Assembly (NCBI RefSeq): GCF_002854065.1
Contig: NZ_CP024147.1
DNA: 64,000 nucleotides
Origin: Escherichia coli
GTDB lineage: Bacteria > Pseudomonadota > Gammaproteobacteria > Enterobacterales > Enterobacteriaceae
Strand: one strand, 5' to 3'
Below, in pieces: positions 13,001-16,000 of the stretch. The position numbers were made by a program. Positions within the stretch are counted from its first letter, which is position 1, and the number at the start of each line of letters is the position of its first letter.

Positions 13001-16000
13001 CTGCAAAAAGCTGCTTTTGACGCACTTACCAAAGCAGGTTTCTGGCTGGATGATGTTCAGGTCGTTGATTACCGTGTTGTGAAGATGCCCGTTACCAAAG
13101 GTGGGAAGCTGGAGCTGACCATCACTGAACTGGGAGATGAATGATGTTTGAGTCTTATATGGCAGAACGTCTTCGCCGCCGCTGGGTGCGCCTGCACTTA
13201 TATCATTTTCCCGGTTCTGTTTTGACCGATTACCGAATACTGAAGAATTACGCCAAAACCCTGACAGGAGCAGGAGTATGAAGTCAGAGATAACAATCAA
13301 CTAATACTGTTTTGTTGATTTTTGCTTGTAATTGGCGTTCTGGTCTGATTTTTGTGGAGTAAGTTGATGCGTGATATTCAGATGGTTCTTGAGCGTTGGG
13401 GAGCGTGGGCGGCTAATAATCATGAAGATGTGACCTGGTCGTCCATTGCCGCCGGTTTTAAGGGATTAATTCCTTCAAAAGTAAAATCTCGCCCACAATG
13501 TTGTGACGATGACGCGATGATCATTTGCGGGTGCATGGCCCGTCTGAAAAAGAACAACAGCGATTTGCATGATTTATTGGTGGACTATTATGTCGGCGGC
13601 ATGACTTTTATGGCGCTTGCACGTAAGCATGGGCGATCTGATTGTTGGGTTGGCAGGATGCTCCAGAAAGCTGAGGGCGTAGTGGAGGGTATGCTGATGG
13701 TGTTGGATCTCCGATTGGAGATGGATGCTGATTGTTCGAAATAATTAAAGGAAAAGTTGCTGTCTGATTGTCATTAGTCTAACATTTTAAATGTTGGAAT
13801 CGCAACGTAGTTATTATCATATAACAGCTTGTTTCCTGATTTAGCCAGCCTCCCCAAAGGCTGGTTTTTTTCTAATAAGTATCATTTCGGGTAGGGATTT
13901 TATTGTTTAACCCATAATAATTCATTGACATTGAATCCCAACTTTTGAGCGGTTCGCACATAGTCTGCTTTTACTTTATCTGGAATAGTTGAGGTCCTTG
14001 CCAGAATCCATAGGTATTCTCTGTTCGGACCACTGACAAGAGCATACTTATACTCATCATCCAGTTTGATTACATTATAGCCACCATAGAAGGGGCCAAA
14101 AAACGAAACCTTCAACGCTGCAGTTTTAGTATCTCCAGTAAAGTATGCTTTACCTTCGCTCTCGCTCCATTTATTTTTCGTTGGATCGTATCCACGGTTA
14201 AGTACACGAATCCCTCCGTCGTTCCGTTTTCCATAAGTAGCGCTGACCTGTTCCAGACCACGTTCGAACCGGTTCTCGAGGCGAGCTATTTCATACCATT
14301 TTCCGAGGTAGCGGTTGGCGTCAAAATTTGTAATCGGCTGCACACCTTTAGGTGGTGTCGGGGCCTTACATGCTATAAGAGTGAAAGAGAGCGCAATGCC
14401 AGTCAACACAGGCCATAACTTCATAATAAATCCTGTACTTTTGATAGTTGAGAGTAAGTATGAAAGATAGATGATTACGACCGATCACTTAAAGAACTTT
14501 CATACTATATTAGGAATAGTCCATAACAGAAAAATTGTCAGTGATGACGCCAGAAAGGCAATTTATTCCGTGCACTACACAGTTTATGTGTTAATGAATT
14601 AGTCAAGGGGGAGGATATGATAAAAAAACCTGTGATTGGAATCAGCGGTTGTTTGGCCGGTTCTGCTGTTCGTTTTGATGGTGGTCACAAAAGAGCTGAC
14701 TTTTTAATGGACAAATTAGTGGAATGGGTAACATTCAGACCAGTATGTCCGGAAATGGCTATAGGGCTGCCAGTTCCGCGTCCTGCTCTACGTCTTGTGC
14801 GCTCGACGCAAGGAAATATACGGATGTGTTTCAGCCACGACCAGAATGAGGATGTGACAGAGAGAATGACAGAGTTTAGTCGTTCTTATATGGACAAATT
14901 AAAGGATGTATCGGGGTTTGTGGTTTGTGCTAAATCTCCCAGCTGTGGCATGGAGCGCGTGCGTGTCTATGATGAAAATGGTAATCGAGGTCGTAAAGAT
15001 GGAGTGGGACTATTTACGAGCACTTTGATGGAAAAGTTTTCCTGGCTACCGGTTGAAGAGGATGGGCGATTACATGATCCAGTGCTTCGTGAGAATTTTG
15101 TTGAAAGAGTTTTTGCTTTGCATGAGCTCAATCACCTTTACAAGGAGAAATTATCAAGAAGAGAGTTATTGGCTTTTCATAGTCGTTATAAGCTTCAGTT
15201 GTTGGCGCATAGTCAGACAGGCTATAAAGATATGGGACCATTTGTGGCTGCAATACACGAGTGGGCGGATCTTGAATCATACTTTGAGGTGTATCGTGAT
15301 AAGCTGATGGCGATTCTCAGAAAACCTGCATCACGTAAAAATCACACGAATGTGCTGATGCATATACAGGGGTATTTTAGTAACTACTTAAGTACACGCC
15401 AGCGTAAAGAGTTGAGCGAGGTTATACTTAACTATCGTTCTGGCACATTACCTCTTCTTGCGCCGTTGACTCTGCTGAAGCATTATCTGGGTGAGTATCC
15501 TAATGATTACTTGCTTACACAGAATTACTTCGATCCCTATCCGGACGAACTGGCTCTAAGACTGATGGTAAATTAATTGTATGCGATATCATCCAAAAGG
15601 ATGAGTTCCTGCATACAGGATATTTACAATCGTAAAAACTACACTATGATACCCAGAGTGTCAGTTTGTATAAAAACTCTGTTTACGCTGAAGAAACCAT
15701 TGAGATGCAACTTAAATTTGGTAAACATGCCAGTCAAAATATATGATATTATGATTCCACGCAGCTATATATAATATAACAGATTGGTGGTAATGACTCC
15801 AACTTATTGATAGTGTTTTATGTTCAGATAATGCCCGATGACTTTGTCATGCAGCTCCACCGATTTTGAGAACGACAGCGACTTCCGTCCCAGCCGTGCC
15901 AGGTGCTGCCTCAGATTCAGGTTATGCCGCTCAATTCGCTGCGTATATCGCTTGCTGATTACGTGCAGCTTTCCCTTCAGGCGGGATTCATACAGCGGCC

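Follow-up and report, generated by a model that had tools for sequence, protein, structure and literature searches.

The window analysed here, a 64,000-nucleotide stretch of the Escherichia coli contig NZ_CP024147.1, probably contains a defective lambdoid prophage with a cargo (moron) cassette, which codes for a RudS-family 4-thiouridine (s4U) eraser and next to which the lysis genes were lost by an IS1 deletion; we give this reading a probability of roughly three in four. The full cassette would consist of a tR′-like terminator, a blc-type lipocalin gene on the minus strand, rudS, a gene for an AraC/YdeO-like regulator, and a second terminator (Table 1). A preliminary description of this DNA had reported the order Q, hairpin with a T-run, convergent lipocalin gene, 319-aa fusion gene and IS1, and each element was found at its claimed place. 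As judged by its sequence, the fusion is a member of the published RudS family of [4Fe-4S] tRNA 4-thiouridine desulfidases (Jamontas et al., NAR 2024, PMC11417400). Both the lipocalin moron and the RudS enzyme are already published, and the cassette is no new kind of system.

Table 1. Positions of the cargo cassette and its neighbours in the window.
Feature	Position	Strand	Remarks
Q antiterminator gene, DLP12 QuuD type	13367-13744	+	125 aa; Pfam Phage_antitermQ PF06530
Terminator-like hairpin, AGCCAGCC-N6-GGCTGGTT + T-run	13843-13872	+	hairpin 13843-13866, T-run to 13872
Blc-type outer-membrane lipocalin lipoprotein gene (blc)	13900-14424	-	174 aa; convergent with late transcription
Divergent blc-rudS intergenic region	14425-14616	.	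34% G+C
rudS, TudS(DUF523)-DUF1722 fusion, predicted tRNA 4-thiouridine desulfidase	14617-15576	+	319 aa
AT-rich rudS-araC spacer, left part	15577-15788	+	promoter-like sites
IS1-b, simple insertion within the cargo block	15789-16556	-	768 bp
Third cargo gene, AraC/YdeO-like transcription regulator	16705-17436	+	243 aa; 31.7% G+C
Second terminator-like hairpin, ACGCCAG-N8-CTGGCGT + TTTTCTTTTT	17498-17529	+	closes the cargo block, 5′ of the former holin gene
IS1-c, deletion end-point	17624-18391	+	no target duplication

The N-terminal part of the fusion protein (residues 7-149) matched the complete Pfam 2-thiour_desulf model (PF04463, 1-141 of 141, E 1.6e-39), and residues 192-309 of the same polypeptide matched the complete DUF1722 model (PF08349, 1-117 of 117, E 2.5e-40). 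The protein was assigned over its whole length (319/319) to phrog_3275, and 297 of its 319 residues (93%) are identical to gp66 of phage 1H12, known as RudS_vir. The two proteins share their place on the phage map, their length and the residues Cys12, Cys44 and Cys110, and none of the 22 substitutions falls at a ligand or catalytic residue; unlike the 1H12 copy, the window rudS lies in a decayed, IS1-cut prophage. Residues C12, C44, E46, R55, S107, S109 and C110 are all present and were invariant in 45 homologues, with C12 and C44 aligning to Cys10 and Cys43 of TudS. The preliminary description had made its TudS assignment depend on the Cys ligands, and the complete set (C12, C44 and C110) is there. 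The cluster ligands of RudS_vir are numbered as in the window protein (Jamontas 2024, PMC11417400). In RudS_KT, E51, S111, S113 and R60 are the catalytic Glu, the two Ser and the orienting Arg, whose mutation abolished activity (PMC11417400); they map to E46, S107, S109 and R55 of the window protein.

The catalytic domain is homologous to that of TudS (PDB 6z92) and has the same Cys and Glu motifs. TudS, however, is a single-domain protein of 166 aa that acts on free bases and nucleotides rather than on tRNA, whereas the window protein adds DUF1722 and, with 319 aa and two domains, lies outside the one-domain, ∼150-170-aa range of stand-alone TudS proteins. Its C-terminal half (residues 160-315) matched the model of E. 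coli YbgA, a stand-alone DUF1722 protein, with 190.8 bits, short of the 237 bits set for equivalogs. YbgA, which is devoid of a catalytic domain, left tRNA s4U unchanged (PMC11417400).

From these residues a mechanism can be proposed. C12, C44 and C110 of the TudS domain would ligate a [4Fe-4S] cluster, whose free iron would coordinate the 4-thiouridine sulfur. Water would then be activated by E46, placed by R55, S107 and S109, so that s4U8 of the tRNA is converted to uridine, and DUF1722 would hold the tRNA by its anticodon arm. In RudS_KT, the contacts with this arm are assigned to S243, R244 and T246 of DUF1722. In a lysogen, RudS may lower the photosensitive s4U of host tRNA, and the lower s4U content may blunt UVA-induced tRNA cross-linking, the growth delay and the ppGpp burst. 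Expression of each RudS variant tested, RudS_vir included, lowered the s4U content of E. coli tRNA, and the overexpressed Pseudomonas enzyme RudS_KT reduced the UVA growth delay (PMC11417400). The earlier guess that the fusion acts on thiolated nucleobases or tRNA thus agrees with the s4U loss that the 1H12 protein (93% identity) caused on overexpression, although for the window protein it is a prediction by homology.

RudS_vir showed the weakest tRNA activity relative to protein level, and its lag on free 4-thiouracil was shorter than that of any other RudS protein (PMC11417400), so that tRNA may not be its sole substrate. The phage enzyme could therefore mainly salvage free thiolated pyrimidines (4-thiouracil, or 4-thio-UMP from tRNA turnover), as TudS does, with tRNA as a side substrate. 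Such a role would suit that short lag and the lower tRNA desulfidation, which was seen despite good protein levels (PMC11417400), as well as 15 residues peculiar to the phage protein at sites where the chromosomal homologues are at least 93% conserved, several of them in the linker and DUF1722. We nevertheless consider it quite improbable, because a uracil auxotroph was rescued by TudS but by no RudS protein, RudS_vir still lowered tRNA s4U (PMC11417400), and the tRNA-binding DUF1722 domain is intact under purifying selection.

The NCBIfam Blc subfamily model NF007786 (cut-off 267 bits) matched the lipocalin with 313.5 bits, and the protein carries a lipoprotein signal, with the lipobox LIAC read from the translation at residues 16-19 (Cys19). 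It was assigned to phrog_2809 and aligned over residues 20-174 to the solved E. coli Blc (3mbt; E 5e-68). The blc gene has been listed as a lambda moron; more than 50% of the lambda phages from the infant gut had it (Mathieu 2020, PMC6969025). The intergenic region between blc and rudS, which is 90-98% conserved between alleles, contains one consensus-like promoter site (TTGAGA-16-GATGAT, 14448-14475, plus strand). Such matches in the cargo block are consensus-like only, and their frequency was not above that in shuffled sequences.

Upstream of the cargo, the Q product covered the whole of the PF06530 model (1-118 of 118, E 2.4e-51) and was assigned to phrog_79. The Q gene has ∼90% nucleotide identity to the DLP12-derived Q of phage 434B, where nmpC comes after Q. 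The hairpin that follows Q in the window was the sole terminator-like site within 13300-15800. Its T-run is on the plus strand only, and the 95-nt stretch that holds it folded with a z-score of -4.3 relative to shuffles. The stem-loop is identical in the window, 1H12, NCTC11476, GN04592 and IdasGreatGrand alleles, with a T-run of seven or eight residues, and the 100 nt from Q to the hairpin are conserved between alleles as well. The hairpin, in the place expected for tR′, is a putative tR′. An Rfam scan of 11000-19500 gave nothing credible, the top match, on the terminator hairpin, reaching 28.6 bits relative to a gathering score of 50. A consensus pattern search of the 100-nt Q-hairpin interval revealed no strong sigma-70 match. 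One pR′ candidate read by eye in this interval (TTGCTG-17-TAACAT, 13757-13785) is well spaced, but its hexamers are poor and its -10 is not shared by the 1H12 allele. A conserved ATATAACAG motif is also present in DLP12.

At the other end of the block, the rudS-araC spacer contains a promoter-like site with 10 of 12 matches (TTTACA-16-TATGAT, 15623-15650); between alleles this spacer has only 52-69% identity with many gaps, and the small ORFs annotated there in phage records are poorly conserved. IS1-b is flanked by a 9-bp target duplication, CAGATTGGT (15780-15788 and 16557-16565), and its flanks are collinear with phage IdasGreatGrand. The AraC-like gene, which is parted from rudS here by IS1-b, had been overlooked in the preliminary description. 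Its product contains the Pfam domains HTH_18 and HTH_AraC, was assigned to phrog_1450, and is identical at 241 of 243 residues to the IdasGreatGrand product encoded between rudS and holin. The top NCBIfam match was YdeO over the whole length, but with 127.3 bits the protein falls below the equivalog cut-off of 348 bits and by this score is no YdeO ortholog. As an AT-rich YdeO-like gene on a prophage it resembles the genes of the AraC-like regulators PatE, PsrA/PsrB and AppY (prophage) and YdeO (chromosomal); such regulators switch on genes for acid resistance. The number of genomes with the AraC-like gene tracks that of rudS, which argues against near-identity to PatE, PsrA or PsrB of O157. 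We also ruled out that it corresponds to orf242, the SPI-2 partner gene, because orf242/MlrB is MerR-like. The second terminator-like site is found at the same place, between the AraC-like gene and holin, in an intact phage (IdasGreatGrand L002, 8422-8443).

The preliminary description had placed these genes as prophage cargo in the interval between Q and the lysis genes and had asked whether the fusion recurs at Q-proximal sites elsewhere. Both points were borne out: the block is present in 12 sequenced lambda-like phages, and Q, blc and rudS are contiguous in 996 complete E. coli genomes. The rudS gene was detected in 1135 of 5426 complete E. coli genomes (∼21%), nearly always adjoining Q, and the AraC-like gene in 1033 of the 5426; 992 genomes hold most of the AraC-like gene, as compared with 969 in which it is contiguous with holin. 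The same cassette order occurs in three different prophage backbones. The fusion had also been called unusual on a phage, which is right for phage isolates (full-length rudS in 12 of 50,697 phage records) but not for E. coli prophages, where rudS is common.

In Stx phages, stx is a moron of the Q-to-holin interval of lambdoid phages. The nmpC/ompD porin morons of DLP12, ev099 and mEp332 occupy the same slot, next to the same Q type, with late-operon signals bracketing the cargo and with the porin gene convergent, like blc in the window. Phages 1H12, ev099 and mEp332 agree in their gene order from P to Q and in their holin-endolysin genes, and ev099 and mEp332 carry the porin gene instead of blc-rudS-araC. 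The cargo is thus present or absent at one junction between otherwise homologous phages, as expected for a moron, and the slot is a real cargo hotspot. The flanking of the block by terminator-like hairpins, recognized at the pattern level only, and its base composition (blc 44.0%, rudS 43.3% and the AraC-like gene 31.7% G+C, relative to 49.9% in the nin region and 48.1% in Q) are likewise typical of morons. The window cargo differs in content from these toxin and porin morons, in that it comprises three genes, one of them for an eraser of a tRNA modification.

Since the slot takes unrelated cargo, and IS elements have entered the block repeatedly (IS1 in the window, IS2 in E. coli 042, IS3 in others), one could regard the cargo genes as selectively neutral passengers, kept only by their place between the Q and holin recombination modules. 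This is very improbable: dN/dS across the cargo-block alleles was 0.07-0.27 with dS up to 0.35 (0.11 for rudS, and 0.07 for blc as compared with the 1H12 allele), all catalytic residues are invariant, and the block is found in about one-fifth of the genomes, within three or more prophage backbones.

The window prophage is a decayed lambdoid element integrated at the tRNA-Thr gene thrW. The left junction of IS1-c corresponds to position 8548 of IdasGreatGrand L002, which lies either within the annotated holin gene or at its start, and its right flank is the ykgL-ykgO-ykgM chromosome; the IS1-c deletion removed the lysis and structural genes of this strain from the holin start onward. The preliminary description had the cargo standing in place of the lysis genes. 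This does not hold, because in intact phages the order is Q, blc, rudS, AraC-like regulator, terminator and holin-endolysin-Rz, so that the lysis genes come after the cargo; their absence from the window is due to the IS1-mediated deletion in this strain and not to the design of the element. The immunity and replication region is also missing, beside IS1-a, and hence Q-dependent expression may never happen in the window prophage.

Given the place of the cassette within the late operon, rudS and the regulator gene would also be read by Q-modified RNA polymerase upon induction, antisense to blc. RudS could alternatively serve the lytic cycle rather than the lysogen, by keeping tRNA chargeable for the late proteins. 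The prophage is induced by sunlight through DNA damage and SOS, and the UVA in the same light cross-links s4U-tRNA; the cross-linking stalls translation and raises ppGpp; RudS would then come from Q-driven expression or from a low constitutive level. The rudS gene is 3′ of the tR′-like terminator and on the lysis-gene strand, and the second terminator follows only after the AraC-like gene, so that any Q-antiterminated transcript must include rudS. The link from UVA through s4U cross-linking and uncharged tRNA to ppGpp is summarised in the literature. However, cross-links arise at irradiation and cannot be reversed by an enzyme produced late, and the activity reported for RudS is removal of s4U, not repair of cross-links. 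Furthermore, an own-terminator architecture is typical of lysogen-expressed morons, and rudS is kept under purifying selection even in non-lysing remnants (the window, E. coli 042). A purely lytic role is therefore rather unlikely.

E. coli probably has no chromosomal RudS. The RudS paper states that E. coli lacks RudS, and genomic context, partner genes and prevalence were outside its analysis (PMC11417400). That statement is corrected here: ∼21% of the complete genomes carry rudS on prophages, so that the UVA/s4U physiology of K-12 may not represent the species. The question can now be framed as whether a temperate phage alters host tRNA modification as lysogenic conversion, or uses RudS during sunlight-triggered induction.

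Chromosomal RudS proteins of Enterobacterales (among them RudS_ST/ORF319 of Salmonella SPI-2 and the product of the MerR-linked gene of Enterobacter cloacae) have the same 319-aa architecture, with 66-76% identity. In many genera, chromosomal rudS stands beside a divergent gene for a 174-aa lipocalin, 68-81% identical to the phage lipocalin. Chromosomal rudS is found in two arrangements, either accompanied by a gene for a MerR/MlrA-like repressor, with a conserved dyad lying ∼60 nt 5′ of rudS, or at the end of a CFA-synthase/DUF1365/DUF3833 operon; phage rudS has neither. All 19 MerR-linked loci showed 16-19 of 22 matches to the dyad, which in 17 of them is placed 60-84 nt upstream of rudS and lies further away in loci L028 (-115) and L014 (-287). 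An operator of the MlrA/MlrB type kept in the phage, by which host MlrA would repress rudS, was unsupported, since the best match was 14/22 (background 11-12), with the wrong spacing and with its right half mutated in the 1H12 allele. No homology was found between the blc-rudS intergenic region and the chromosomal loci, similarity being limited to the coding regions, and none of the 46 chromosomal rudS loci screened had an AraC-like gene. An unannotated gene for a 174/175-aa product in the Citrobacter/Klebsiella rudS operon is not a lipocalin gene, given the lack of BLASTP similarity.

The blc-rudS pair resembles the chromosomal lipocalin/MerR/rudS locus minus the MerR gene and its operator. 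Tentatively, and with the odds somewhat against it, the cassette may be a captured light/UVA-stress locus that lost the repressor gene and operator, gained an AraC-type regulator, and now lies inside a lambdoid late operon. In that case, prophages would give about one-fifth of E. coli strains a tRNA s4U eraser that is otherwise missing from the species, tRNA photoprotection would be coupled to sunlight-driven prophage induction, and lysogenic conversion would act at the level of the host tRNA modification state. The G+C content of phage rudS is 43%, as compared with 48-58% in the six chromosomal copies measured.

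The region is ordinary, already described phage cargo, and the preliminary description had read it correctly: by ORF listing and direct reading, the coordinates of the Q antiterminator gene, the hairpin, the lipocalin gene, the fusion gene and IS1 were right throughout. Our additions are modest, namely a third cargo gene, an IS1-based account of the missing lysis genes, a two-terminator architecture, the prevalence of rudS in E. coli and, likely, the origin of the cassette from a MerR-controlled chromosomal locus.

Features of the prophage region and its cargo block (window positions; the IS1 copies are lettered in coordinate order)
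Feature	Position	Strand	Size	Remarks
tRNA-Thr gene thrW	4913-4988			prophage start
Integrase gene	5003-6163			prophage start
IS1-a	10197-10964			without target duplication
Small ORF	11023-11331		102 aa	lipoprotein-like signal (…LAGC)
Small ORF	11490-11693		67 aa	
Q antiterminator gene	13367-13744		125 aa	full-length Pfam Phage_antitermQ
Q-blc spacer			155 nt	AT-rich; carries the hairpin with T-run
Motif ATATAACAG	13818-13826			~20 nt 5′ of the hairpin
Terminator-like hairpin with T-run	13843-13872			AGCCAGCC-N6-GGCTGGTT; sole such site of the region
blc-type lipocalin gene	13900-14424	minus	174 aa	
blc-rudS intergenic region			192 nt	divergent
rudS	14617-15576		319 aa	complete DUF523/TudS and DUF1722 domains
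IS1-b	15789-16556			in the rudS-regulator spacer, 212 nt past rudS; 9-bp duplication CAGATTGGT
Regulator gene	16705-17436		243 aa	AraC family
Second terminator-like hairpin	17498-17529			3′ of the 243-aa gene; equivalent position in intact phage
IS1-c	17624-18391			without duplication; right flank is ykgL-ykgO-ykgM chromosome

Fusions of the 2-thiouracil desulfurase TudS with DUF1722 are named RudS and strip 4-thiouridine (s4U) from tRNA via a [4Fe-4S] cluster (Jamontas et al. 2024, PMC11417400). The proteins tested in that study included gp66 from Escherichia phage 1H12, called RudS_vir, whose ligands are Cys12, Cys44 and Cys110; every RudS variant reduced tRNA s4U in E. coli, and RudS_vir was comparatively weak on tRNA, yet showed the shortest lag on free 4-thiouracil (PMC11417400). 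Phage 1H12 is one of the DNA matches to the region. The window protein is identical to 1H12 gp66 at 297 of 319 positions, with none of the 22 differences at a ligand or catalytic residue. The preliminary description had proposed an alignment check of the Cys ligands: C12, C44 and C110 are present, as are E46, R55, S107 and S109, and all seven residues are invariant in 45 homologues (5 phage and 40 chromosomal). They correspond to positions of RudS_KT, the Pseudomonas enzyme, where mutation abolished activity (PMC11417400). Judged from its sequence, the window protein has every defining RudS feature and is near-identical to an active phage enzyme; the suggestion that thiolated nucleobases or tRNA could be its substrates was sound, and such activity had already been published (PMC11417400). 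Two single-contig variants with an extended RudS (P0002 and P0006), a 403-aa RudS-GGDEF protein from an E. coli contig and a 500-aa DUF3833-RudS protein, are probably deletion or gene-calling fusions.

The lipocalin passed the curated Blc cut-off (313.5 vs 267 bits), aligned end to end with the solved E. coli Blc, and carries the lipobox LIAC. The gene blc is listed as a moron in more than half of the infant-gut lambda phages of Mathieu et al. 2020 (PMC6969025), the study from which 1H12 and the Lambda_ev phages originate. The third gene codes for a regulator that is YdeO-like over its full length, far under the equivalog cut-off, and identical at 241 of 243 positions to its counterpart in phage IdasGreatGrand. 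The G+C content of the cargo (blc 44.0%, rudS 43.3%, regulator 31.7%) is below that of the flanking nin genes (49.9%), and between-allele dN/dS values of 0.07-0.27 indicate purifying selection on all cargo genes. In E. coli prophages, the regulator gene and rudS are tightly linked (1033 vs 1135 genomes); homologues with 52% identity lie at other positions in phages mEp332, PhiR70_1 and ev099.

The cargo had been described as standing instead of lysis genes. This did not hold: in the three intact phages examined (Lambda_ev087, IdasGreatGrand and 1H12) the order is Q, blc (minus), rudS, the 243-aa gene, holin, endolysin and Rz, and in 969 complete E. coli genomes the AraC-like gene directly adjoins the holin gene (992 hold most of the AraC-like gene). 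The usual arrangement is cargo and lysis genes together, and the lysis genes present in intact phages are absent from the window because of its three IS1 copies. IS1-b is a simple insertion, whereas IS1-a marks a deletion of the immunity and replication region of the prophage and IS1-c one of everything from the holin gene to ykgL. The left junction of IS1-c corresponds to position 8548 of the IdasGreatGrand locus, at the beginning of the annotated holin gene or inside it. The closely related strain CUWW06 has an IS1 with kil on one side and nin genes of the ybcN type on the other, and neither repressor nor replication genes are annotated in this interval. The three copies have the same length and lie inside 8.2 kb, with a target duplication at the middle copy alone; the cargo genes outlasted both deletions. 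Two small ORFs (102 and 67 aa), which in the window follow IS1-a and precede the ybcN-type nin genes, are missing from the equivalent place in CUWW06.

That the interval downstream of Q is a moron site was borne out. Phages ev099 and mEp332 match 1H12 in gene order from P to Q as well as in their holin-endolysin genes, but carry a convergent porin gene (nmpC/ompD) in place of blc-rudS-regulator; DLP12, as captured in phage 434B, also has a porin gene in that slot. Homology between porin-type and blc-rudS-type cassettes runs out ~18 nt ahead of the stop codon of Q. The block was found on at least three prophage backbones: a DLP12-like nin region (E. coli 042), a Qin-like one (hokD-rem-ydfU; NCTC11476) and a lambda-like one with iss/bor (GN04592).

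The hairpin downstream of Q folds far better than shuffled sequences (z = -4.3) and is unchanged in four other alleles despite up to 9% spacer divergence, with only the T-run varying in length. Since a hairpin also follows the 243-aa gene, the cargo block is enclosed by two putative plus-strand terminators within the late operon, and rudS lies between them on the late-gene strand. Matches to consensus promoters in the cassette were not more frequent than in shuffles, and a search for a pR′ or qut site for this Q type identified none. The motif ATATAACAG is common to the otherwise dissimilar DLP12/nmpC cassette (L005). It is kept in all alleles and, for this Q type, could belong to the late promoter or to a sigma-70 pause element. 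UVA-induced growth delay was shortened by the Pseudomonas RudS (PMC11417400). In a lysogen, RudS would lower s4U8 of host tRNA, and less s4U8 would mean less UVA cross-linking, growth delay and ppGpp burst. Upon induction, Q-modified polymerase would pass both terminators, and the transcript would join rudS and the regulator gene with the lysis genes and run antisense to blc.

Recurrence of the fusion at Q-proximal sites was confirmed, with Q-blc-rudS contiguous in 996 complete E. coli genomes. The rudS gene was found in 1135 of 5426 such genomes (at least 80% of the gene in 1063 of them), and the regulator gene in 1033. The statement that E. coli lacks RudS (PMC11417400) is therefore valid for K-12, not for the species. 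Among 50,697 phage records, full-length RudS was present in 12, all E. coli lambda-like phages.

The nearest RudS proteins outside E. coli share only ~76% identity. We screened 46 chromosomal loci (41 Enterobacterales loci from a scan with one genome per species, and 5 fetched earlier), which fell into two main arrangements. In type A (Citrobacter, Klebsiella, Pectobacterium and Dickeya), rudS closes an operon of SnoaL, SDR, amine oxidase, DUF1365, CFA-synthase, DUF2878 and DUF3833 genes. In type B (Enterobacter, Leclercia, Lelliottia, Serratia and Phytobacter), a lipocalin gene (minus) is followed by a MerR/MlrA-like gene (plus) and rudS (plus); this lipocalin has 174 aa and is 72-81% identical to its phage counterpart. 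A conserved dyad, AaACTTgGACA-N12-TGTGTAAgTTT, is present in all 19 type B loci; it matches the MlrA box and lies 60-84 nt upstream of rudS in 17 of them (L026, L029-L031, L033, L035, L037-L042, L044-L045, L050, L057-L058) and further upstream in L028 (-115) and L014 (-287). The Salmonella homologue orf319 has been reported as repressed by MlrB and MlrA, which the dyad fits; its conservation suggests a MerR-type repression of rudS shared across Enterobacterales, published for orf319 alone.

Two Citrobacter loci have the lipocalin gene and rudS without the MerR gene or the dyad, the C. sedlakii one in an ordinary chromosomal context, and the phage block has this reduced arrangement too. The best match to an MlrA-type dyad in the phage block was near background and not conserved between alleles, and none of the 46 loci screened on chromosomes contained the Q gene or the AraC-like gene. 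Judging by gene order and by comparable degrees of divergence, we infer that a phage captured the lipocalin-rudS pair from such a chromosomal locus, leaving its MerR control behind; the AraC-like gene would then be an addition on the phage side. On a Salmonella Derby contig (L018, 3285-6814), a rudS with 73% identity adjoins ttcA (tRNA 2-thiocytidine synthase), with a phage-type DUF1367 gene and a porin gene after rudS and a ttcA-side spacer resembling degraded coding sequence; this locus may be another rudS-bearing prophage remnant, at the Rac integration site of E. coli. Citrobacter braakii ATCC 51113 carries two rudS copies in one genome (L019 and L021), one closing a CFA-synthase/DUF3833 operon and the other an orphan between diguanylate-cyclase-type genes.
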